From Nitrososphaerota archaeon (GTDB taxonomy: Archaea > Thermoproteota > Nitrososphaeria_A > Caldarchaeales > Calditenuaceae): a stretch of 64,000 bases of DNA. The notes under the pieces are model-generated. The model searched no databases. It was not told the DNA's origin and was given only the letters and a program-made list of their open reading frames with translations. The position numbers and the translations under genes are program-made. The DNA lies in the NCBI GenBank assembly GCA_038845265.1, contig JAWBQR010000001.1:1-64000 (forward strand). The letters run 5' to 3'. How positions within the stretch are numbered: position 1 is the first letter of the stretch; each line of letters opens with the position of its first letter. Positions 18,876 to 28,942 of this stretch are shown here, one piece after another.

Positions 18876-19781
18876 CTATGTGGCATTAGTTAATTTAATT
18901 TTTGATCCCGTAGCAGGAGTATTGTTTACAGATTTGACAATGATTTTTCCTTCATATCGACTCATCGCTCTACATACTTCTTCGAGTTTGTTGTCTGTCG
19001 TTAGGGAAGCAAATGAGGGCCCTGTGCCTGATACGCTGCAGGCCAATGCACCGGCTCTCAGGGCGTCAATGATTATCTCTGTAGGTAGGGAAAGGGCCGA
19101 TGCATGTATAAGTCCATTAATAGTCATGGCTCTAAAATAATTTCCCTCTACCGCTAGCCTAAATGCCTCTTCTACTAATCCCTTAATGGGTTCTAGTAAA
19201 TTACTTCTGAAATCCTTAGTAAATTGTTTTTCTGGAGGCACGAGTATGACGGCCCGCAAGTAAGTCGGAGCATCTATGCGTCTTATCAAGACATCTTTTT
19301 TATTATTGGTTATTACTATACCACCAAGTGCACAACTTGATGCATCGTCAATTGCTCCAGTAATCGATGTCCCTGATCGACGTGACGCCTCAGCTACTAT
19401 TGTTAGAAATTCTCTAACACTAAGCTTTACGTCAAGTGCGTCTAGGATTGCTAGCGTTATAGCAACTGCTGCTGAACTAGAGCTCTTAAGCCCGACGGCT
19501 ATTGGGATGTTTGACCTAGTCGTTATTCTGCATCCGAAGGACTCGAGATTCAGTCTTTCGACAAGTACATCTACTATAGCTTTTGCCAAAAGATCATCGC
19601 CTATCTCTTCTTTGTTGACAAGAGTAACTTTTCCATCATCTGTCAGCTCTACTTCTGCATCTGTCTCGAAATCCACTCCGATTGCTGCTCCTCTCCAAAT
19701 AGATATGGCATTGATTATCGTCACGGCGCCATACGCCCTTGCCCACCCTCTCCCTTGACTCCTCATTCTGGCTAGAGTCAA
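18876..19781 (-). CDS. aroK: Archaeal shikimate kinase (GHMP family)
   Basis: GLKSSSS, SITGAIDD and SGTGPS. Confidence 0.93.
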   Translation of the reverse strand: MTLARMRSQGRGWARAYGAVTIINAISIWRGAAIGVDFETDAEVELTDDGKVTLVNKEEIGDDLLAKAIVDVLVERLNLESFGCRITTRSNIPIAVGLKSSSSAAVAITLAILDALDVKLSVREFLTIVAEASRRSGTSITGAIDDASSCALGGIVITNNKKDVLIRRIDAPTYLRAVILVPPEKQFTKDFRSNLLEPIKGLVEEAFRLAVEGNYFRAMTINGLIHASALSLPTEIIIDALRAGALACSVSGTGPSFASLTTDNKLEEVCRAMSRYEGKIIVKSVNNTPATGSKIKLTNAT

Positions 19782-19793
19782 TAAAAAGTAACC

Positions 19794-19995
19794 TTTAAAT
19801 TAGACCTTTCCTACGCAAAATGCAAGAGCAGGGGGAATAGGCGTGGGGAGCAAAAACTTCAAATTAATAGGATTTGCGACCTACGCCTATTTCTATGCCT
19901 GGATTAGTTAGGTTTCTCCCTCCCTGCCCCCTGCTCTTGAGGTGGTTGGTAATGTCTATAGTTAATGTGTGGTGTTTTAGACGGAGGTGTGATTC
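19794..19995 (+). promoter_or_regulatory. aro operon promoter and highly structured 5' leader (putative attenuator)
   Basis: TATA TTTAAAT 19794-19800; perfect 13-bp stem 19823-19835/19927-19939; 12-bp inner stem 19836-19847/19880-19891; pyrimidine tract 19913-19938. Confidence 0.75.
19843..19911 (+). CDS. Putative aromatic amino acid leader peptide MGSKNFKLIGFATYAYFYAWIS
   Basis: GTG start 7 nt after GGGGG; 3 Phe, 3 Tyr and 1 Trp in 22 codons; TAG at 19909-19911. Confidence 0.65.
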   Translation: MGSKNFKLIGFATYAYFYAWIS

Positions 19996-21051
19996 ATGAA
20001 AAGAGTAAAGGCCGCGGTTCTAGGCGCTACTGGAATGGTTGGACAACTGTATGTCGAGTTATTGGCTAAGAATCCATGGTTCGAAATATCAGCCGTTACA
20101 GGCAAGTCAAACGTTGGGAAAACACTCGCTGAAGCCTACAGAGGAAGAGGAAACACACCTGAAATATACAAAGACCTTGAAGTGTTACCCTCAGATCCTG
20201 GCAGGATAGACGCAGATATAGTCTTTAGCTGCCTGCCAACAAGTGCTGCGCGAGAAGTCGAGCCGAGATTCGCCGAGGCTGGATTTCCTGTCATAAGCGA
20301 TGCGTCTGCTCATAGGACGTGGCCCGATGTGCCTCTCATTGTGCCGGAGATTAATCCAGAACATCTAGATCTGATTGATGTGCAGAGGAAAAATAGGAAG
20401 TGGGACGGATTCATTGTGACGACGCCCAACTGCACGACAGTTGGATTTGTAATGCCTTTGAAAGCATTGATGGACCAGTTTGGTTTAAAGTATGCTAGCT
20501 TAGTTTCTATGCAGGCAATATCAGGTGCTGGATATAACGGAGTGCCATCCATGGCAATCCTCGGAAACATAATTCCCTACATAGAAGGCGAAGAACCTAA
20601 AGTCATAGAGGAGCCCAGAAAGATCCTTGGAAAATTAAATGATGGTAAGATAATCCCAGCTGAAATAGCAATTGATGCTACCTGTACTCGATCACCCACA
20701 ATTTTTGGGCATTTAGAAGTTATACAGGTCGAACTCAATGAAGATGCGGAAATTGATGAAGTTAAAGAGACATTAAGCACATACTCTGGATTACCACAGA
20801 TGTTAGAGCTTCCCTCTGCCCCAAGAAGACCTATTTATGTATTCGAAGAACCAGATAGGCCTCAACCTAGACTTGATGTTGATTTCGGAGACGTGAAGGG
20901 AATGACAATTACTATTGGTAGACTTAGGAAATCAAGCAGGCCTCGGCATTACTCGTTTGTATCATTGAGCCATAATTTGATTAGAGGAGCAGCGGGGACA
21001 GCTATACTTACAGCAGAACTTTTAATTGCGACTAGGAGGTTGAACTATTGA
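19996..21051 (+). CDS. asd: Aspartate-semialdehyde dehydrogenase
   Basis: LGATGMVG, PNCTT, QAISGAG and HNLIRGAAG; SD GGAGGTG. Confidence 0.96.
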   Translation: MKRVKAAVLGATGMVGQLYVELLAKNPWFEISAVTGKSNVGKTLAEAYRGRGNTPEIYKDLEVLPSDPGRIDADIVFSCLPTSAAREVEPRFAEAGFPVISDASAHRTWPDVPLIVPEINPEHLDLIDVQRKNRKWDGFIVTTPNCTTVGFVMPLKALMDQFGLKYASLVSMQAISGAGYNGVPSMAILGNIIPYIEGEEPKVIEEPRKILGKLNDGKIIPAEIAIDATCTRSPTIFGHLEVIQVELNEDAEIDEVKETLSTYSGLPQMLELPSAPRRPIYVFEEPDRPQPRLDVDFGDVKGMTITIGRLRKSSRPRHYSFVSLSHNLIRGAAGTAILTAELLIATRRLNY

Positions 21052-21845
21052 TGGTCTCAGGTAAGCAGGTTCATATAAATCGACTTACTGAGAGGGGAAG
21101 AATGCTATGTATTCCGATGGATCATGGCATTACTGCCGGACCAATGAAGGGTTTAGACACAATCTACCAGACGATTGAAAAAATTGAAGAAGGAGGGGCG
21201 ACAGCTTTCCTTGTACAGAAAGGAATAATTAAACATATGAAGAGAGTACCAAGAATTGGCTTTATTGTCCATGTCTCCGCTAGTACTTCGATATGCCCAG
21301 ATCCGAACTGGAAAGTAAGAGTAGGAACAGCATTGGCGGCGATAAGGCTAGGTGCTGACGGATTATCAGTCCACATAAATATTGGAAGTAAAATGGAGCC
21401 ACTCATGCTCAAAAAGCTTGGCCTACTCGTTGATGAATGTGATTCACTCGGCCTACCAATCATTGCAATGATGTATCCAAGAGGAGAAGGAGTAAAGGAC
21501 CCAAATGATCCGAAAATATTGGCACATGTCGCTAGGGTTGGCGCCGAGCTAGGAGCAGACATTGTTAAGGTACCATTTAGTGGAGATGCAGAAAGTTTTA
21601 GTAAAATAGTTGAGGCATGTCCCGCACCCATAGTTATGGCCGGAGGCCCGAAGGTAGATAGTGACGAGGCTGTACTAGCTATGGCTAAAGCTGCAATAGA
21701 TGCGGGCGCAATGGGAGTTACTATTGGTAGAAACGTGTTTATGCATGAAAAACCTGAACTCATCGTCAGGGCTTTAAGAGGAGTAGTGATAGAGGGTATG
21801 AATGTCAAGGAGGCGCTATCCATTATTGAGACAAAATCAGAATAA
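21048..21845 (+). CDS. aroA': 2-amino-3,7-dideoxy-D-threo-hept-6-ulosonate synthase (MJ0400-type class I aldolase)
   Basis: PMDHG, MMYPRG, ELGADIVK, AGGPK and GRNVF; operon context. Confidence 0.9.
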   Translation: MMVSGKQVHINRLTERGRMLCIPMDHGITAGPMKGLDTIYQTIEKIEEGGATAFLVQKGIIKHMKRVPRIGFIVHVSASTSICPDPNWKVRVGTALAAIRLGADGLSVHINIGSKMEPLMLKKLGLLVDECDSLGLPIIAMMYPRGEGVKDPNDPKILAHVARVGAELGADIVKVPFSGDAESFSKIVEACPAPIVMAGGPKVDSDEAVLAMAKAAIDAGAMGVTIGRNVFMHEKPELIVRALRGVVIEGMNVKEALSIIETKSE

Positions 21846-22830
21846 ACCAAAAGAAATTATCGTTGAAGTTAAGACAACCAAGGAAGCGGTAGAAGCGGTA
21901 GCGAAGGGCGCTAGTGCACTTTTTGCTCCATACAACATTATTCCTCCTGAATTAAGAGATAAAGTGAAGATTTACAACGAGGAGACGGGCACCTCGATAA
22001 TTTCGATAAAAACTCCCTCGGACGTCGAGTTGATTCATAGAGCAGCTATGGCAGGGGCATCTGCAATTTTAGTAGAGACATCAGACATAAGAATCATACC
22101 GTTGGAAAATGTTTTGGCAAAGCTTCAAGGAATGAATACTGAGGTTCTGGTCAGAGTTGATAAAATTGAGGATATTGAGACCCTCTTCGGAGTATTAGAA
22201 AAAGGAGTAGACGGCATCGTCTATAGCCCATCAAGTATTGAAGAAGTTTCGCTTTTAAGAGATTTTCTAAATTATGTGAAAAAGGTCGAACTTGTTCCTG
22301 CAAGAGTCAAAGAGGTAATAAATGCAGGTATTGGTGAGAGAGCCTGCATTGATACGACAACGATGTTAAGGATTGGGGAGGGACTTCTTGTAGGAAGCAT
22401 GTCCCGAATGCTATTCCTAGTTCACAGCGAAGTTATTGGTTCAAGTTTCACTGAACCTCGTCCATTCAGAATAAACGCCGGAGCTATACATCTATACACT
22501 TTAGGACCATTGGCAAATACTTATTACTTATCCGAGTTAAAAGCTGGAAAAAGAGTGCTAATAGTATCTAAAGACGGCTCCACTAGAGTGGCAACAATTG
22601 GGAGGGTAAAGATTGAGAGGCGACCATTGATGATGATCTCAGCCGAGATTGATAATACTAATGGCTCCGTGATTGTTCAAAATGCTGAGACGATTAGATT
22701 AGTCGACCGCAATGGTGAACCTATTGAAGTGACAAGGATAGGTGCTGGTGATGAAGTACTAGTACATCTCTCAGGAATATCAGGCAGACACATGGGGATG
22801 AAAGTAGAGGAAAGCATAAATGAAGTTTAA
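21802..22830 (+). CDS. aroB': 3-dehydroquinate synthase II (MJ1249-type)
   Basis: IIPLEN, RACIDT, RPFRINAG, KIERRP, QNAETIRL and RHMG. Confidence 0.93.
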   Translation: MSRRRYPLLRQNQNKPKEIIVEVKTTKEAVEAVAKGASALFAPYNIIPPELRDKVKIYNEETGTSIISIKTPSDVELIHRAAMAGASAILVETSDIRIIPLENVLAKLQGMNTEVLVRVDKIEDIETLFGVLEKGVDGIVYSPSSIEEVSLLRDFLNYVKKVELVPARVKEVINAGIGERACIDTTTMLRIGEGLLVGSMSRMLFLVHSEVIGSSFTEPRPFRINAGAIHLYTLGPLANTYYLSELKAGKRVLIVSKDGSTRVATIGRVKIERRPLMMISAEIDNTNGSVIVQNAETIRLVDRNGEPIEVTRIGAGDEVLVHLSGISGRHMGMKVEESINEV

Positions 22831-23539
22831 GCCAGAAGAAAAAATATGCGTTTCAATAGCAGGAAAAAATTTCTACGAAGTAACTAACCAGTTAGAAGTA
22901 TTAAATGAGGCTGGAGCCAAATTAGTAGAGATGAGATTAGATTTTCTTATTGATAATAAATATCTGGAAGTTTTGAAAGCCGCTTCAAATTACGGTTTTA
23001 AAATAGTATCAACGGTTAGATGCAGGACAGATGGCGGAGTATTTGATAAGAGCGAAGAACAACGTAAAAAAATTCTTTTGGAGAGCGCTTCAATAGCCAC
23101 TTATGTCGATGTCGAATACGATACGTATCTCTCCGATGAGCAGTTCATAGAAAAGCTGAAGGATCGAGGCTCGAAGATCTTACTTTCAAAACATTTTTTT
23201 GAATATAATCCAAATCATCAGACGCTGATTATGATTTTGGAGAGAATGAAAGACTATGGAGATTTATACAAAATAATTACCTCTCCTAAAAATCTGTTTG
23301 ATGCAAATAATCTGTTATCTCTATACAAATATGACTGGACTAAGGGACGGTTAATCGCCTTTTGTATGGGGGAACAATGGGCCTTCACGCGTCTTCTCAG
23401 TATTTTCTTGGGAGCACCTTTTACATATGCACATAATGGCAATTCTCCCGTGGCGTCAGGACAACTTTCATTCATAGAGGTGAAAAATGAATTAGAAAAA
23501 CTATCATGGTTGGGTGAAAAATGGCATTTCTCGCAGTAA
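22820..23539 (+). CDS. aroD: Type I 3-dehydroquinate dehydratase
   Basis: EMRLD, YVDVE, SKHFF, FCMG and ASGQ. Confidence 0.9.
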   Translation: MKFKPEEKICVSIAGKNFYEVTNQLEVLNEAGAKLVEMRLDFLIDNKYLEVLKAASNYGFKIVSTVRCRTDGGVFDKSEEQRKKILLESASIATYVDVEYDTYLSDEQFIEKLKDRGSKILLSKHFFEYNPNHQTLIMILERMKDYGDLYKIITSPKNLFDANNLLSLYKYDWTKGRLIAFCMGEQWAFTRLLSIFLGAPFTYAHNGNSPVASGQLSFIEVKNELEKLSWLGEKWHFSQ

Positions 23540-24369
23540 TTGGTCACCCCGTTGGTCATTCATTATCTCCTTTAATGCATAACTCTACATTATGGATGTA
23601 TAGATTACCTCATAGGTATCTTGCAATAGATATATTACCAGAGAATCTTAGAAATGTAATAAATTCATTATGGAAATTAGAATTTATAGGCTTCAATATA
23701 ACTATACCTCATAAGGAGCAAGTAGCGAAAATCGCTATAGAACTCTCAGAGGAGGCCGCCTCAACAGGCGCGGTAAATACCACAATCAGAAAAAGCGATG
23801 GCTGGGCGGGCTTTAACACGGATGTTGAAGGTTTCATTTCTAGTTTTTCCAGATTAAATGTAAGAATGATCGATACTTGTTTAATACTAGGTGCTGGTGG
23901 TTCTGCAAAAGCTGCAACCTACGCATTGGACAAAATGGGTGCAAGAAAAATTATAATTGCTAACAGAACGCCTGAAAGAGCAATAAAACTACGTGAATTA
24001 ATGGATCCAAAAATTAGCAGCAATCTAGAAATAATATCACTAGATGATGTTAATAATCATGTATCTAGAGTAGATGTTGTAATTAACGCAACACCAGTTG
24101 GGTTGATGGACGATAAATTATTAATTAATCCTGAATGCTTAACAATTGATCAAATAGTCTATGATCTTGTCTATTCGCCTAGACCCACTCCACTAATACG
24201 AGCGGCTATGAATAGAGGCTGTAAAATCATTGACGGAGTAGTGCATCTCGTAGAGCAGGGTGCAGCTTCGTTTAGGATATGGACAGGCATTACTCCTGAA
24301 ACTTCATTTATGGAGAAAGTAGTGAGAACCGAACTGCTGAGAAGGTGGAGGAGAAGTGAGATTAGTTAG
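23521..24369 (+). CDS. aroE: Shikimate dehydrogenase
   Basis: GHSLSP, NITIPHK, NTD, GAGGSA and NATPVG. Confidence 0.96.
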   Translation: MAFLAVIGHPVGHSLSPLMHNSTLWMYRLPHRYLAIDILPENLRNVINSLWKLEFIGFNITIPHKEQVAKIAIELSEEAASTGAVNTTIRKSDGWAGFNTDVEGFISSFSRLNVRMIDTCLILGAGGSAKAATYALDKMGARKIIIANRTPERAIKLRELMDPKISSNLEIISLDDVNNHVSRVDVVINATPVGLMDDKLLINPECLTIDQIVYDLVYSPRPTPLIRAAMNRGCKIIDGVVHLVEQGAASFRIWTGITPETSFMEKVVRTELLRRWRRSEIS

Positions 24370-25633
24370 GATTACAGGTAAAATAGCAGAGGGAGTCATT
24401 AAGGCACCGCCCAGTAAAAGCTATACACATCGTAGCGTGATCATCGCGTCCCTAGCAGATGGAACCTCATATATTCATAATCCCCTGATCTCTATGGATA
24501 CAGTTGCCTCAATAACTGGAGTAACACTCATGGGAGCAAAGATCACACAAGAAACTAATAAACTGATTATAGAAGGAGTCAGTAATCCCCTGACGCCTCC
24601 CGATGTTATAGATGCTAAAAATTCGGGTACCACTTTGAGAATACTAACTGCAGTTGCTGGTCTAGTAAAAAGTGGATATGTAGTGCTTACTGGTGACGAT
24701 AGCTTGAGGAAAAGACCCATGCAACCGCTCCTAGAAGCTCTTCATCAACTTGGAGTGGAGGCTTGGTCAACTAGGCTCAATGGAAAGGCCCCAATAATAG
24801 TAAAGGGTGGGGGATACAAATATCGAGAATGCATCATTACAGGAGAGATAAGCAGTCAATTCATATCTGGATTGATGATCGCGGGGGCCAAGACAGAGCT
24901 TGGCATCTTAGTAAAAATATCTGGGAAAATAGTTTCCTTGCCCTATATACACGCTACCATGAAGACTCAAGAATTGTTCGGTGCAAAATCTATTGTGCAA
25001 GATAGCCAAATAATTACTGAGTCAACCGGCTACAAATCTACTGAATTCAAGGTGCCTGGAGATTACGGACTCTCAGCATTCTTATTAGCTGTACCGTTTA
25101 TGATTGGGGGAGAAATAACTTTAAGGGGACTTAATGATGAATTGCCACAACCGGAGGCTGTAATTATCAATATCCTTAGGAACATGGGTGGAGAAATAAA
25201 ACAAGGCCGAGACGAAGTATTAGTGAGAGACACTCCCTTAGAAGGAATAAAGGTATCACTCAGAGACTCGCCCGATTTGTTACCTGTTATATCGGCATTA
25301 GCAGTAAAAGCGAAAAATGAAACTGTCATTACTGATGTGGGTCATGCTAGGTTTAAAGAAAGTGATAGGATATCGGTGATAGCAACAGAATTTAGAAAAG
25401 CAGGCATTAAGACTGAAGAGCTACCTGAGGGGTTAAGAATATTGCCGGGTGAACTTAAACCCGCAGTGCTTGACCCACATGGTGACCATAGACTGTTCAT
25501 GGCTTTTTCACTATTGTCAATATATTCTGGTGGGAAAGTATTAGTAAAAGATCCAGAATGTGTAGCAGTCTCATATCCACAGTTCTTAAATGATCTTAAA
25601 ACCATAGGTTGTAGGGTGGAAATAATAGAATGA
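24356..25633 (+). CDS. aroA: EPSP synthase
   Basis: PSKSYTHR, NSGTTLR, SSQFISG, KESDRI and DHR. Confidence 0.96.
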   Translation: MRLVRITGKIAEGVIKAPPSKSYTHRSVIIASLADGTSYIHNPLISMDTVASITGVTLMGAKITQETNKLIIEGVSNPLTPPDVIDAKNSGTTLRILTAVAGLVKSGYVVLTGDDSLRKRPMQPLLEALHQLGVEAWSTRLNGKAPIIVKGGGYKYRECIITGEISSQFISGLMIAGAKTELGILVKISGKIVSLPYIHATMKTQELFGAKSIVQDSQIITESTGYKSTEFKVPGDYGLSAFLLAVPFMIGGEITLRGLNDELPQPEAVIINILRNMGGEIKQGRDEVLVRDTPLEGIKVSLRDSPDLLPVISALAVKAKNETVITDVGHARFKESDRISVIATEFRKAGIKTEELPEGLRILPGELKPAVLDPHGDHRLFMAFSLLSIYSGGKVLVKDPECVAVSYPQFLNDLKTIGCRVEIIE

Positions 25634-26733
25634 CTGGTAACATAATTGGAAAAAGATTTATAGTGATAAGTTTCGGTGAGAGTCATGGCAAATGCATAGG
25701 CGTAGTGATTGATGGATGTCCAGCCGGTCTGCCAATATCGGAAGATGAAATTCAATCTTTCGTAGATCTGAGAAGACCAGGCCAGTCATTAGTAACAACA
25801 CAAAGAAAAGAAGAGGACAAAGTAGAGATACTCAGCGGCATATTTGACGGACACACTACCGGTGCGCCAATAGCAATGGTGGTTTGGAACAAGGATGTAG
25901 ATTCACGTGCATATGATATCTTCAGACAAATTCCTAGGCCTAGTCATGCGGATTATTTTGCTTTTTTTAAATATGGGGGATACAATGATTGGAGAGGCGG
26001 TGGAAGATTCTCAGGCAGAATAACTGTAGGATTCGTTATGGCTGGCGCCGTGGCACTAAAATTGATCAAATACGTTCTAGGAATAGATGTACTAGCATAT
26101 ACTAAGAGTATAGGAGATATAAATTCACGCGAACTAACTGTTGAAGAGATAAGAAAGTACAGATACTTAAATGAGGTAAGATGCCCAGACTTAGGGGCGG
26201 CTAAGAAAATGAAGGATCTATTAATCAAACTTAAAAGTGAGGGAGATAGCATAGGTGGGATAATTGAATGCATCGCTTTAAATGTACCAATAGGGCTTGG
26301 AGAACCAGTCTTTGATTCTCTCGACTCAGAGATTGCTAAGGCAATATTTTCTATCCCGGCTGTAAAGGGAATAGAGTTCGGAAAAGGATTTTCTGCTAGT
26401 AGAATGACTGGGTCTCAACATAATGATCCGCTTACCTATATTAATGGAAGAGTGATTCCAAAAACGAACAATGCAGGGGGAATCGTTGGAGGTTTATCAA
26501 CTGGAAGCGAGATAATATTTCGCGTAGCATTTAAGCCACCTGCATCTATATCAAAGCCTCAGAAAACCCTGAATATTCAGACTTTGAGAGATGAAGATCT
26601 TATAATTACCGGTAGACATGACCCATCGGTAGTTCCGCGAGCTGTGCCTATTGTTGAGTCAATGACGGCGATAGTACTTGCTGACCACGCAATCAGAGCA
26701 GGACTGATAGCTCCAGTAATTAAAGAGAGATGA
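25630..26733 (+). CDS. aroC: Chorismate synthase
   Basis: FGESHG, PRPSHAD, GGGRFSGR and GRHDP. Confidence 0.97.
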   Translation: MTGNIIGKRFIVISFGESHGKCIGVVIDGCPAGLPISEDEIQSFVDLRRPGQSLVTTQRKEEDKVEILSGIFDGHTTGAPIAMVVWNKDVDSRAYDIFRQIPRPSHADYFAFFKYGGYNDWRGGGRFSGRITVGFVMAGAVALKLIKYVLGIDVLAYTKSIGDINSRELTVEEIRKYRYLNEVRCPDLGAAKKMKDLLIKLKSEGDSIGGIIECIALNVPIGLGEPVFDSLDSEIAKAIFSIPAVKGIEFGKGFSASRMTGSQHNDPLTYINGRVIPKTNNAGGIVGGLSTGSEIIFRVAFKPPASISKPQKTLNIQTLRDEDLIITGRHDPSVVPRAVPIVESMTAIVLADHAIRAGLIAPVIKER

Positions 26734-28139
26734 GTAAGATGTCTTCAGAAGATATAAGAAAGTTGAGAGAAGAAATAAAAGAAGTTACATCTAAAATTCT
26801 GGAGCTAATTGCATATAGGCTCAAAAAGGCAGAGGAGATTGGTAAACTAAAAAATGAAATAGGAATTTCATATATAGATCATGAGGTTGAAAAAGAATTA
26901 AGAGAACTTATCAATAAAAAGTCTCTTCAACTAGGCCTCGATACAAATTTTACCCAGCAATTAATGACGCTGATCTTCAAAGAATCTATAAAGCAACAAA
27001 TGAGCCTAACTAAGTTTACTAATAAAACGCAAATAACTCATATGGATATTTTTAGAAAAGCAAAAGAATTAGAGGCAGAAGGAAAGAAAATTATTCACCT
27101 AGAAGTAGGCGAGCCATATTTTGGAGCACCAAGAGAAGTTTCTGAAAAACTATCAGAAGCAGCAAAGAAGGGATATGCATTTTATGGAGAACCTTTAGGA
27201 AGAACAGAACTAAGATTTGCAATTGCAGAATGTTTAGAAAAAAGATTCAGCATCTCACTAAAAAAGGATGAAATACTAATAACACCAGGTGGACGATTTG
27301 CAGTCTTTCTTGCAGCTGCCACAACTCTATCTCCCGGAGATGAAGCTATAATAATTGACCCATCATGGCCTATGTATAAACAGGTAACGGAATTTTTACA
27401 GAGCAGACCTGTTATTGTTGAGACTCGCCTCGAGGATGGATGGATTCCTAATATTGAAGAGCTTGAAAGAGCTGCTAGCCATGCAACAAAATTATTATTC
27501 ATTAACTATCCAAATAATCCTACCGGCGTAACCATTGATAGGAAAAGACTTGAAGAGATATTAGATTTCGCTAGAAGGAGGAATCTCTACGTCGTCAGCG
27601 ATGAAGTATATATGGATTATTCATTCGTTGACTTCACGTCAATTCTTGAAATAGGATACGAAAATGCAATAATGCTAATGTCATTTTCAAAAAATTATGG
27701 CATGACCGGCTACAGAATCGGCTATATGGTTGCAAAAAGAGAAATAATAGAGAGAGCAGCAAAGATACAAGCTCTACTCATGACCTGCGTGCCTGAATTT
27801 ATTCAGATGGCTGCCCTTGAAGCACTAAAAGACAGAGAGACTCCTAAAAAATATTGTGAAGAAATTAAAAAAAGAATTGAAGTAGTATGTCAAAAATTAG
27901 ATAGCATGAATGCTGAATACGTCAAGCCAACAGGTGGAATGTATGTTTTTCCTCGATTTAAATTCATGAAGAGAGATTCCTCCGAACTTGCCTTAAAGCT
28001 ATTAGAAAAATATGGAGTATCGATAGCTCCTGGATCAGTATTCGGTAACTATCCGAACTATTTTAGAATATCTGTAGGAATTAGGCTAGACCAAATAGTC
28101 GAGGGAATTGAAAGGCTTAATAAAGCCATAAATGAATAG
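26730..28139 (+). CDS. Chorismate mutase (AroQ) fused to class I/II PLP aminotransferase
   Basis: N-terminal about 90 aa AroQ-like (LREEI...R...IGKLK...D..E...ES); then HLEVGEP, NNPTG, SDEVY and SFSKNYGMTGYRIG. Confidence 0.85.
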   Translation: MSKMSSEDIRKLREEIKEVTSKILELIAYRLKKAEEIGKLKNEIGISYIDHEVEKELRELINKKSLQLGLDTNFTQQLMTLIFKESIKQQMSLTKFTNKTQITHMDIFRKAKELEAEGKKIIHLEVGEPYFGAPREVSEKLSEAAKKGYAFYGEPLGRTELRFAIAECLEKRFSISLKKDEILITPGGRFAVFLAAATTLSPGDEAIIIDPSWPMYKQVTEFLQSRPVIVETRLEDGWIPNIEELERAASHATKLLFINYPNNPTGVTIDRKRLEEILDFARRRNLYVVSDEVYMDYSFVDFTSILEIGYENAIMLMSFSKNYGMTGYRIGYMVAKREIIERAAKIQALLMTCVPEFIQMAALEALKDRETPKKYCEEIKKRIEVVCQKLDSMNAEYVKPTGGMYVFPRFKFMKRDSSELALKLLEKYGVSIAPGSVFGNYPNYFRISVGIRLDQIVEGIERLNKAINE

Positions 28140-28183: not shown

Positions 28184-28942
28184 TTGACACAAGAACCCAA
28201 AAGATACGATAAAAATGAAAGACAAATATTTGACGCTCTGAAAGAATCTTTAATGAATAAAATAGCTGCAGAAATAACCTTATCAAGTAATAGTGGAGTT
28301 ACTATGAAGAAATGGAGAGTATTATTCGAGCTTAAGCAGAGTGATGTTGCAAGAAAAATGTCTATTTCGCCTTCTGTCTTAAGCGACTATGAAAAGGGAA
28401 AACGTAGGTCTCCAGGTATCGGATTTATCAGACGCTTTATCAAAAGTATAATTGAATTGGATGAGGAGAGAGGCGGGCACAATATTTACAAATTTTCTGG
28501 ACACGCTTCGACCATTCATAAAGCAATAATCGATATTAGTGAGTATAGAGTACCACGAAGACTGGGTGATCTCTTATCAGCCATAGAGGGGACATTTCTA
28601 TGGGGAAACATAAAGTCAGACGCGGAGGTTTACGGATATACGGTAATAGACAGCCTAGCAGCTATTCGCTATATGGAGTCGCATGAATTTATCTACATAT
28701 TTGGTGCGAACTCAATGAGACTCCTAGTCTTTACAGGTGTATCCACAGGAAGATCGCCCATGATAGCGGCCAAGGTTTTTCCAATAAAACCAACTGCCAT
28801 AGCCCTACATGGCCCAAAGGATGAAAAAGAAGTTGATCTACTTGCAATTGAACTAGCAGAGTCGATCGGTGTTCCACTAATTCTATCTAAGTGTCCTGAG
28901 ATAGATAAAATTGTAAGCAACCTAAGAAGGGCGGGAGAATAG
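28184..28942 (+). CDS. XRE-type HTH transcriptional regulator (COG1709-like)
   Basis: KWRVLFELKQSDVARKMSISPSVLSDYEKGKRRSPG; GVSTGRSPMIA. Confidence 0.85.
   Translation: MTQEPKRYDKNERQIFDALKESLMNKIAAEITLSSNSGVTMKKWRVLFELKQSDVARKMSISPSVLSDYEKGKRRSPGIGFIRRFIKSIIELDEERGGHNIYKFSGHASTIHKAIIDISEYRVPRRLGDLLSAIEGTFLWGNIKSDAEVYGYTVIDSLAAIRYMESHEFIYIFGANSMRLLVFTGVSTGRSPMIAAKVFPIKPTAIALHGPKDEKEVDLLAIELAESIGVPLILSKCPEIDKIVSNLRRAGE

Follow-up and report, generated by a model that had tools for sequence, protein, structure and literature searches.

The asd–shikimate operon of a hot-spring archaeon of the family Ca. Calditenuaceae is preceded by a 22-codon open reading frame (uORF) rich in aromatic codons, which is probably a real leader-peptide gene that, together with the three-way-junction RNA in which it lies, acts as a sensor through which ribosomes read the supply of aromatic aminoacyl-tRNAs on behalf of the operon. 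Leader-peptide attenuation is a textbook bacterial mechanism that relies on the coupling of transcription to translation and on terminator hairpins; Archaea have a eukaryote-like polymerase and a different mode of termination. The presence of an aromatic uORF in a conserved, folded leader, combined with similar ORFs in related archaea, suggests that ribosome-sensed control probably exists in Archaea. Our literature search found no published archaeal case of leader-peptide attenuation, which agrees with an earlier note on this DNA that considered this mode of control not to be established in Archaea.

The asd leader and its RNA fold

In the window, by which we mean the whole 64-kb stretch of DNA that was analysed, the uORF encodes MGSKNFKLIGFATYAYFYAWIS and runs on the + strand from GTG 19843 to TAG 19909–19911, leaving a gap of 84 nt to asd, the first gene of the operon. 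Seven of its 22 residues are aromatic (F6, F11, Y14, Y16, F17, Y18 and W20). The sequence and the ORF list thus bear out the reading frame and aromatic content described in the earlier note, and the G-rich Shine–Dalgarno-like run (19831–19835) and the TATA box that it placed upstream are both present. The features of the region are as follows.

18876–19781, − strand: divergent archaeal-type (GHMP) shikimate kinase gene in the same intergenic region (Pfam; NCBIfam TIGR01920, 237 bits against a cut-off of 126.85)
19794–19801, + strand: TATA-box-like TTTAAATT, a putative promoter element (alignment with relatives)
19823–19835, + strand: 5′ arm of helix P1, CAAGAGCAGGGGG, the predicted mRNA 5′ end, containing the Shine–Dalgarno-like G-run of the uORF (fold, covariation)
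19836–19854, + strand: 5′ arm of hairpin P2, containing the GTG at 19843–45 (fold, covariation)
19843–19911, + strand: leader-peptide ORF, 22 codons (ORF list; in frame in 19 of 19 leaders)
19873–19891, + strand: 3′ arm of P2, made of the leader-peptide codons F-A-T-Y-A-Y (fold, covariation)
19882–19902, + strand: aromatic codon block TAC GCC TAT TTC TAT GCC TGG (Y A Y F Y A W) (sequence, alignment, fold)
19897–19913, + strand: small hairpin P3 (GCCUG/UAGGU), with the uORF stop UAG at 19909–11 (fold at 60 and 75 °C)
19913–19926, + strand: J3/1, a pyrimidine-rich single strand, GUUUCUCCCUCCCUG (sequence, fold)
19927–19939, + strand: 3′ arm of P1, CCCCCTGCTCTTG (fold, covariation)
19940–19999, + strand: genus-specific spacer from P1 to the asd start (sequence, alignment)
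19983–19998, + strand: asd Shine–Dalgarno sequence GGAGGTG (19983–89) and start codon ATG (19996–98) (sequence, ORF list)
19996–28139, + strand: operon of asd, ADH synthase (aroA'), DHQ synthase II (aroB'), aroD, aroE, aroA, aroC and a chorismate mutase–aminotransferase fusion (Pfam)

Pfam domains confirm the asd-aroA'B'DEAC-CM/aminotransferase operon that had been read from the sequence: Asd (19996–21051) is followed by a DeoC-type ADH synthase, DHQ synthase II, DHQase I and shikimate dehydrogenase and, more distally, by EPSP synthase, chorismate synthase and a CM_2+aminotransferase fusion that ends at 28139. Upstream, TTTAAATT aligns with TATA-like boxes of all relatives at a constant distance to helix P1, and may also be used by the divergent shikimate kinase gene. 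The spacer between P1 and asd carries an SD-like GAGGTGG followed by an ATG at 19952, which opens a 15-codon ORF with a stop TGA (19997–99) that overlaps the start codon of asd; a T4 run lies at 19974–77. This small ORF begins with ATGTCTA, which is similar to the start of asd in genus g4 and probably arose by duplication of the ancestral start.

The uORF sits within a very stable three-way-junction RNA that begins at the predicted transcription start and that is absent from the earlier note. The outer helix P1 comprises 13 perfect base pairs (19823–35/19927–39), and in the inner hairpin P2 (19836–54/19873–91) the uORF start GTG pairs with the first Tyr codon, TAC 19882–84. The aromatic codon block extends from the last part of P2 through junction J2/3 into the 5′ arm of P3, so that the putatively regulatory codons overlap paired segments (the P2 3′ arm and P3 5′ arm) whose pairing a stalled ribosome would prevent. 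Comparison among relatives reveals covariation in P1 along with a compensated 2-bp insertion in genus g2, changes on both sides in 10 of 17 P2 pairs, and, for genera g4 and g2 as well as for families of the same order, a stop codon held in an equivalent P3-like hairpin. The proportion of paired cells is 87.3% in the leader fold versus at most 56.5% in slid controls, and 12 pairs are changed on both sides versus at most 6 in those controls. The fold is still stable at 75 °C. This RNA is found in one copy per genome, upstream of asd every time; its single-copy status in its own genome rules out a repeat or MITE, and the two further G-run/C-run helices in that genome lie within a 363-aa ORF and in a tRNA-Leu.

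Conservation of the leader ORF and related leaders in Thermoproteota

Only 0.0002 of 5000 composition-matched shuffles of the uORF reach at least seven aromatic codons. Yet a small ORF with at least six aromatic residues in a 10-residue window occurs in 6 of 485 upstream regions of the same genome, asd's included. The probability of a chance origin, judged within a single genome, is low but not negligible, and conservation across relatives is therefore the decisive evidence.

We assembled 19 distinct Ca. Calditenuaceae leaders: 18 from species genomes of four genera (g1–g4), and one from a metagenome contig (L097), which was the sole new leader gained in a metagenome scan with Asd. All 19, a count that overstates independence because the genomes are related, contain an ORF of 21–29 codons in the frame of the aromatic block; the alternative frames are stop-free in only 2 of 19 (+1) and 6 of 19 (+2) leaders. 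This one frame is retained through turnover of the start codon, which is GTG in g1, GTG or ATG in g2, and ATG in g3 and g4, with the g4 ATG located at the predicted 5′ end, where the window has AAG (19824–26). Codons change synonymously (Gly GGA/GGT/GGG/GGC, Tyr TAC/TAT, Phe TTC/TTT), Tyr and Phe replace one another among leaders, and in one genome TAT TTC is permuted to TTC TAT. In three genera, pN/pS ratios of 0.38, 0.55 and 0.73 were obtained for the frame of the uORF, compared to 0.86–1.68 for other frames, with part of this codon conservation imposed by P2 pairing. The N-terminal half of the peptide is free to vary, and the aromatic tail is the only part that is kept; g4 peptides have just 4–7 aromatic residues and are weakly enriched versus shuffles (p 0.001–0.12). 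As a negative control, the chance aromatic ORF 5′ of hisC in the same genome, which we rejected as a leader peptide, overlaps an AT-rich promoter and is not conserved even inside the genus.

Elsewhere in the order and the phylum, other families also have aromatic-rich uORFs of unrelated-looking sequence ahead of the aromatic operon, whose first gene varies between aspartate kinase, asd and aroA'. Loci that begin with aspartate kinase carry such a uORF in 11 of 11 cases in one survey, with more in another, and genus g15 has one before an aroA'-first operon. In families outside the order, 9 of 34 loci reach at least six aromatic residues in a 10-residue window, against backgrounds of 6 in 485 for upstream regions of the window's genome and 1 in 26 for matched loci. 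Some relatives have the same operon with no such leader (0 of 7 g7 loci and 0 of 3 f2 loci), and a covariance model of the Calditenuaceae leader has matches in 0 of 57 genomes outside the family. The main prediction of the earlier note, that relatives would conserve a uORF with its aromatic codons despite synonymous drift, thus holds in four genera and extends to other families.

The leaders of other Thermoproteota resemble those of Calditenuaceae in their aromatic-rich C-terminal tail, in their position upstream of an aspartate kinase, asd or aroA' operon, in a purine-rich 5′ arm at the predicted start whose pairing partner is a pyrimidine arm at the end of the uORF, and in a hairpin at or past the stop codon. 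In nearly all leaders, 0–4 codons separate the last aromatic codon from the stop. Unlike these shared features, the nucleotide and peptide sequences are not alignable, and several of the other leaders possess a clear hairpin plus T5 that is absent in Calditenuaceae; families f13, f20 and f31 have a strong hairpin directly past the stop codon, with T5 after it.

An alternative that we consider unlikely is that the three-way junction is a protein or small-molecule site, as in a riboswitch-like or repressor-bound leader, and that the ORF is a by-product of RNA constraints or just an unfolding aid. The junction is strongly conserved and covarying, the most conserved bases in the alignment fall in the G-run, CCUAYNCCUAYUUCU and the C-run, no alternative fold was found, and the uORF start is buried in the fold, so that translation may be rare; all of these are consistent with a binding site. 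The leaders nonetheless keep an open frame through start-codon turnover, accumulate synonymous changes, and in the YF-to-FY permutation change four bases while retaining the aromatic residues. Other families keep aromatic uORFs with unrelated RNA and different first genes, and Rfam covariance models (riboswitch, T-box and others) matched no family, returning just chance miRNA/snoRNA matches far under gathering scores.

Somewhat more doubtful is a translated uORF that responds to translation or coupling in general, or that serves as an unfolding or reinitiation cistron, its aromatic codons stemming merely from a U-rich RNA tract. Such a role could explain why the g4 uORF starts at the predicted 5′ end, why the distance from uORF stop to asd start is conserved at 48–61 nt in g2, g3 and g4, and why the Tyr and Phe codons create UAUUUCUUU directly past hairpin P2. 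It would not explain the recurrence of Trp (UGG), the UAC/UUC versions that are not U-tracts (UACUUCUACUUC in g2), a tie to aromatic operons that persists across first genes and families, or the finding that no such uORF precedes the other operons checked in the same genome.

We find still less reason to favor a frameshift switch, in which starved ribosomes would slip +1 on the aromatic codons, read to the asd start, couple translation and protect the transcript. The window's +1 frame does end at TGA 19997–99, overlapping the asd ATG, and in 16 of 19 leaders this frame has no stop codon between the aromatic block and the asd start, or runs on past it; but owing to the scarcity of stop codons in the C-rich spacer, about 12 of 19 leaders are open in the control +2 frame as well, and an open frame therefore does not discriminate. 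Moreover, neither frame gets to the asd start in one genome (G001), and no slippery motif was identified. Finally, we regard it as highly improbable that the ORF arose by chance or encodes a functional aromatic micropeptide. Chance does yield the same aromatic score in 6 of the genome's 485 upstream regions, but this ORF, unlike that of hisC, is kept in every leader; its N-terminal half varies freely, its aromatic tail alone is conserved, and its link to the aromatic operon is constant.

A proposed mechanism and the search for its output step

We return to the leader-peptide sensor and propose that transcription starts at about 19824, such that the mRNA would begin with the P1 5′ arm. The first ribosome would load on the uORF only ahead of leader folding, because folding buries the G-run and the GTG start within P1 and P2. 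If Tyr-, Phe- or Trp-tRNA is in short supply, this ribosome would stall on the codons at 19882–19902 and, because these codons form the P2 3′ strand, J2/3 and the P3 5′ strand, would hold the junction unfolded in a high-expression state. With good supply, the ribosome would instead reach the stop codon in P3 and leave, allowing the junction to close and shut the uORF start, which would constitute the low-expression state. The output of this state is the most conjectural part of the scheme; most likely it would be premature termination or RNA polymerase pausing at pyrimidine/U-rich tracts after P3 and P1, with UUUCU (19913–17) and U4 (19974–77) as candidates.

The attenuation proposed in the earlier note stands in part: the conserved uORF supports a leader peptide that senses aromatic supply, but neither a terminator nor an alternative fold was found in Calditenuaceae. 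A scan of 19600–20100 for a hairpin-plus-T terminator found none, T-runs after the leader reach T4–T5 in g1 only and at most T3 in g2, g3 and g4, and the leader adopts a single deep, stable fold. Mutually exclusive antiterminator and terminator structures, with a terminator and U-tract before the first gene, are thus not seen in Calditenuaceae; a terminator-like hairpin with a T-run is present in the sister families f13, f20 and f31. T-runs are common after the uORF, yet we left them out as a statistic because long AT-rich spacers without aromatic uORFs also carry T4–T5.

Constrained folding at 37 and 70 °C, comparing the free leader with a ribosome at the stall site, queued ribosomes, and a ribosome at the uORF stop, left the unpaired probability of the asd Shine–Dalgarno sequence and start unchanged in 13 of 14 leaders. 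In those 13 leaders, constrained folding thus gives no support to a translational attenuator of the ermC or mycobacterial Cys sORF type, in which a stalled ribosome would free the sequestered ribosome-binding site of asd. About 25 nt, more than a ribosome covers, separate the final aromatic codon from the 3′ arm of P1, which means that P1 could pair whether or not the ribosome has stalled. In simple models of coupling, stalling would reduce expression, the opposite of what a biosynthetic operon requires. In RNA data, one contig (X1) spans 19999–20249 only, within asd, and has 29 unlike letters before it; the raw-read metatranscriptomes (X5, X6 and X8) contain 0 reads at the locus and are thus uninformative on expression.

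Likeness to known attenuators and candidates elsewhere in the genome

The Calditenuaceae leader resembles the enterobacterial leader-peptide transcription attenuators (pheL-pheA, trpL, hisL and pheM-pheST) in having a short ORF within the 5′ leader ahead of a biosynthetic operon, in the clustering, towards the C-terminus of the peptide, of codons for amino acids that the pathway itself makes, in the overlap of these codons with a base-paired segment, and in a start site that is hidden after RNA folding. It differs from them in its archaeal host and RNA polymerase with oligo-U or FttA-type termination, in a peptide that mixes all three aromatic amino acids, in a single stable three-way junction that the 5′ end of the mRNA closes, rather than a 1:2 / 2:3 / 3:4 set, and in having neither a detected hairpin-plus-U terminator nor sequence homology. 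Systems of the tnaC/Rho and pyrBI type share with the proposed leader the principle that termination signals or factors gain access to nascent RNA depending on where a ribosome sits near the end of the leader ORF. The tnaC leader senses free Trp at a stop codon and induces a catabolic operon, and pyrBI senses UTP via polymerase pausing; to our knowledge, Rho is absent from Archaea.

In the mycobacterial leaderless polycysteine sORF attenuators, a stalled ribosome blocks a duplex that hides a downstream ribosome-binding site (Canestrari et al., bioRxiv 10.1101/834739). These systems resemble the Calditenuaceae leader in placing the sensory ORF at the extreme 5′ end of a polycistronic mRNA (compare the g4 ATG at the predicted start), in the reading of cognate codons by a pausing ribosome, and in operon-level control without a classical terminator; they differ in their dependence on the downstream binding site, which constrained folding does not reveal in 13 of 14 Calditenuaceae leaders.

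It is about evenly balanced, in our view, whether the leaders of Thermoproteota represent a widespread, undescribed class of amino-acid-sensing leader peptides on the aspartate-semialdehyde/shikimate operon, and with it the first archaeal ribosome-mediated attenuation, operating in Calditenuaceae through a junction closed by the mRNA 5′ end and the archaeal termination machinery (oligo-U, FttA/Spt5) with no bacterial-type terminator/antiterminator pair. The locus and its relatives form a concrete candidate set with natural variants (leaderless versus SD-led starts, leaders with and without T5 terminators, and three different first genes) on which functional coupling, the sensing of amino acids and the control of termination by ribosomes could be tested in Archaea. 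These candidate leaders would also place the regulation of aspartate kinase and asd within aromatic biosynthesis in these lineages.

Elsewhere in the window's genome, trpE has no leader, and a LeuA-like gene lies 61 nt upstream of it. The other aromatic ORFs with top scores lie upstream of genes for a ribonucleotide reductase and an APRT, and of genes whose function is unknown. Small ORFs rich in W, H, L, I/V or T are weak candidates for further leader peptides, with the W-rich ones located before the genes for the V-ATPase E subunit and a luciferase-like oxidoreductase.

The leader RNA and its operon

The short upstream ORF (uORF) that the earlier note had placed ahead of the asd-aro operon was found in the sequence with the coordinates, peptide and aromatic cluster it had reported, behind the TATA box and G-run it had also described, and Pfam assignments bear out its reading of a shikimate operon downstream. 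After asd, the operon encodes, in order, a DeoC-type ADH synthase, DHQ synthase II, type I dehydroquinase, shikimate dehydrogenase, EPSP synthase and chorismate synthase, and ends in a chorismate mutase-aminotransferase fusion. A shikimate kinase gene diverges from it, so that the 214-nt intergenic region has aromatic-pathway genes on both sides. What the earlier note missed is that the leader is structured, with the uORF embedded in a three-way junction of helices P1, P2 and P3.

Features of the leader region and operon
18876-19781, minus strand: divergent gene for an archaeal shikimate kinase of the GHMP type (237 bits to TIGR01920, whose cut-off is 126.85)
19794-19801, plus strand: TATA-like box, TTTAAATT
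19823-35 with 19927-39, plus strand: P1, the outer helix, 13 bp, perfect
19831-35, plus strand: SD-like G-run, the innermost bases of the P1 5' arm
19836-54 with 19873-91, plus strand: P2, stacked directly onto P1
GTG 19843 to TAG 19909-11, plus strand: leader uORF of 22 codons, peptide MGSKNFKLIGFATYAYFYAWIS, 7 aromatic residues, cluster YAYFYAW
19897-19913, plus strand: P3, a small hairpin containing the uORF stop codon
19996-21051, plus strand: asd (Pfam)
ending at 28139, plus strand: chorismate mutase-aminotransferase fusion, the last operon gene (Pfam)

The leader around the uORF folds at -65.4 kcal/mol (z = -3.55; 0/200 shuffles as stable), and a computed fold of -21.2 kcal/mol remains at 75 C. 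In the predicted fold the uORF start codon is buried, with the GTG (19843-45) paired to the first Tyr codon (19882-84), and the aromatic codons span the 3' arm of P2, the single-stranded junction between P2 and P3 (J2/3) and the 5' arm of P3. The element occurs once in its genome and matches no Rfam family. Its P1 begins at an identical distance from the TATA-like box in all relatives, a distance that we take to match the usual archaeal TATA-to-start spacing; together these would place the mRNA 5' end at about 19824, with P1 at the very start. The TTTAAATT box also lies ~27 nt from the likely shikimate kinase ATG (19767-65), and may be bidirectional or common to this gene and the operon.

Conservation within Calditenuaceae

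We located Asd orthologues in relatives and compared their extracted upstream regions. The leader is present in all 18 family genomes that have the locus and on one extra metagenome contig, giving 19 distinct leader sequences from four genera (g1 to g4, the window belonging to g1). A covariance model derived from these leaders gives a single hit in the window's own genome and in 17/18 other family genomes; the sole miss is 73% complete and has no asd orthologue either. In the order's three other families the model matched 0/57 genomes. Across the alignment, the paired share of helix cells is 87.3%; sliding the partners gives no more than 56.5%. Both sides have changed in 12 pairs, where slid controls reach 6 at most, and 10 of the 12 fall in the 17 pairs of P2. 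In genus g2, P1 is longer by 2 bp through a compensated insertion (GAGCGGAGGGGG paired to CCCCCTCCGCTC).

The reading frame is conserved alongside the fold. All 19 leaders contain an ATG or GTG at or past the predicted start site, followed by a frame of 21-29 codons running through the aromatic block; the remaining two frames are stop-free in only 2/19 and 6/19 leaders and contain 36 and 24 stops overall. The start codon turns over within this one frame, being an internal GTG in g1, GTG or ATG in g2 and ATG in g3, while in g4 the ATG lies exactly at the predicted 5' end, making that uORF leaderless (the equivalent position in the window is AAG, 19824-26).

Leader peptides by genus
g1: ...IGFATYAYFYAW..
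g2: ...FGFTAYTYFYFWEG and ...FWFTTYPYFYFGN
g3: ...GRAYFYTDAP
g4: ...TTTYAYFFGP..

Among the leaders, Gly is encoded as GGA, GGT, GGG or GGC, Tyr as TAC or TAT and Phe as TTC or TTT. Tyr in one leader may be Phe in another, and one genome has the order TTC TAT in place of TAT TTC, which alters four bases and retains the aromatic residues. Compared as sequences, these codon changes show drift of the coding type, and the earlier note's expectation of a uORF that keeps its aromatic codons despite synonymous drift holds in 19/19 leaders. The pN/pS values are 0.38, 0.55 and 0.73 for the uORF frame; other frames give 0.86-1.68. Aromatic enrichment over composition-matched shuffles ranges from p <= 0.001 to 0.012 in g1 and g2, and is weaker in g4 (0.001-0.12). 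The non-aromatic codons between Tyr codons (Ala, Pro, Thr) vary jointly with their P2 partners, indicating that RNA and peptide constraints coexist.

Aromatic uORFs in other families

In other families of the order, Pfam identifies aspartate kinase as the first operon gene. In a first set, all 11 kinase-first loci have a uORF with 5-9 aromatic residues that ends 20-45 nt before the kinase gene (for example MRDCLFLTTGYSYYRYSETGASL, ..TTFFYSFWSYRYFTLA, MRVVRAVGLTCTGFSAFTTFSYYYRW and MKAAHFYRFSGYTYYRI). A further set from the order (14 loci, one too-short stretch dropped) adds uORFs ahead of the kinase in genera g14, g9, g10 and g6 and, in g15, directly ahead of aroA', without kinase or asd (for example MMDHAGHACLSRFNSLWSYWYFGFYYFALA); in this set no such uORF was seen at two loci of g9 and one each of g15 and g12.

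No aromatic uORF was seen at the asd-first, short-leader loci of genus g7 (0/7) or at the loci of family f2 (0/3). 

In g7, asd-aroA' is preceded by a short leader only, and these genomes must, judging from such leaders, regulate the operon differently; at one g7 locus (L130, genome G021) a 110-codon ORF has a TGA that overlaps the asd ATG. Upstream of aspartate kinase, two f2 loci (L122 and L139) have a conserved 10-codon ORF, MRGDCVYNCQ or MRGGCVYSCQ, with a single aromatic codon and similarity to the N-terminus of the g6 leader (MRDCLF..), which may be a degenerate or truncated leader.

A wider sample took in 34 loci from further families of this GTDB phylum (one short stretch dropped): 9/34 have at least six aromatic residues per 10-residue window and 13/34 at least five, with examples including ..SQFFSFDYYFYYFN, ..AYRYYYRFF, ..NPYYYYYYYCFF, ..AFQTYYFYFGP and ..MFYSFSYFFYN. 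The background in upstream regions of the window's genome is 6/485 at six or more and 24/485 at five or more, and in intergenic stretches elsewhere in the sampled loci it is 1/26 at six or more. All loci outside the family together give 23/69, which differs from 1/26 by Fisher test (p = 0.0017) and from 6/485 by binomial test (~1e-26), p values that overstate independence since the genomes are related. The earlier note's central proposal, that a Phe/Tyr/Trp leader peptide would govern an archaeal shikimate operon, is well supported by comparative evidence reaching far beyond the window; on sequence grounds, the observation is real.

These leaders also share a layout. In nearly all of them the last aromatic codon lies 0-4 codons before the stop, and all folded examples follow a common plan, in which first a TATA box and then a purine-rich 5' arm bearing an SD-like motif precede a uORF whose end coincides with a pyrimidine arm or hairpin. 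In g9, g14 and g15 the stop codon sits in the loop of a GC-rich hairpin, as with P3 in the window; in three families (f13, f20 and f31) the stop codon is immediately followed by a strong hairpin and then T5. Two aspartate kinase loci from another family of the phylum (L178, genome G106; L179, genome G134) look, from their sequences, like textbook-type attenuators. Their uORFs have the C-termini ..YRYYYRFF or ..YYYYYYYCFF, and immediately 3' of the stop codon comes a hairpin of 12-15 perfectly matched base pairs with T5 after it; in L178 the kinase ATG directly follows the T5.

Proposed regulatory output and neighbouring elements

In function, the nearest parallels are the enterobacterial attenuators pheL, trpL and hisL. 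Equally near are the leaderless poly-Cys sORF attenuators of mycobacteria (10.1101/834739). On the sensor side, our locus has what an attenuator requires, a conserved leader ORF whose cognate codons overlap a paired segment; a terminator/antiterminator pair was not found in Calditenuaceae. The literature listings and abstracts searched yielded no description of leader-peptide attenuation or amino-acid-sensing uORFs in Archaea, and a 2026 review of termination signals across domains (PMC13675443) contains no word beginning 'attenuat'.

We propose that the uORF could be loaded only co-transcriptionally, and that a ribosome stalled by shortage of Tyr-, Phe- or Trp-tRNA would hold the junction open, leading to higher operon expression. 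The sister families offer a readily pictured output, in which a ribosome stalled at the C-terminal aromatic codons would cover the 5' strand of the terminator hairpin next to them. For Calditenuaceae, our preferred output, a tentative and on present evidence rather doubtful one, would be premature termination or pausing, intrinsic or FttA-assisted, at the pyrimidine/U-rich tract past P3 and P1 once the junction folds. FttA prefers U-rich nascent RNA, according to one study (PMC13681488). A scan of 19600-20100 in the window found no hairpin-plus-T site, and T4-T5 runs past the leader occur only in g1 (T4 at 19974-77 in the window), with at most T3 in g2, g3 and g4; operon ends in the window's genome use T5 (28146-50).

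Two other outputs can be weighed against termination or pausing. In a frameshift switch, a +1 slip on the aromatic block would lead the ribosome to the asd start: the +1 frame is open over this distance in 16/19 leaders, and in the window its closing TGA overlaps with the ATG of asd. The +2 frame, however, likewise reaches the asd start in ~12/19 leaders, so the frame comparison speaks neither for nor against this switch. A translational switch of the ermC or mycobacterial type is disfavoured because, under constrained folding, accessibility of the asd ribosome site is the same whatever the ribosome position in 13/14 leaders.

A survey of upstream regions in the window's genome revealed no second convincing leader peptide; an aromatic ORF ahead of hisC is not conserved, and served as a chance control. 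On contig C8 of this genome (~77000-79300, locus L214), trpE (455 aa) lies 61 nt after a LeuA-like gene, leaving no space for a Trp leader peptide. In one metatranscriptome run (X1), a single contig matches 19999-20249 of the window, within asd; its 29 preceding letters are unlike the window's leader, and may come from a strain with another upstream sequence or from an assembly artefact.

Between P1 and asd, 19940-19999 holds a genus-specific insertion of ~45 nt containing an SD-like GAGGTGG and an ATG at 19952, which opens a 15-codon ORF (MSIVNVWCFRRRCDS); the closing TGA of this ORF and the asd ATG overlap as ATGA. The ORF opens with ATGTCTA.., which is similar to the asd start in g4, and on this likeness its start looks like a duplicated ancestral asd start; the ATG is kept in two relatives (G002 and L097) and is ATT in a third (G001). 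Directly past the operon's T5 terminator region, a gene at 28184-28942 (plus strand) encodes an HTH_3 (XRE-type) protein of 252 aa, which could be a neighbourhood transcription factor.
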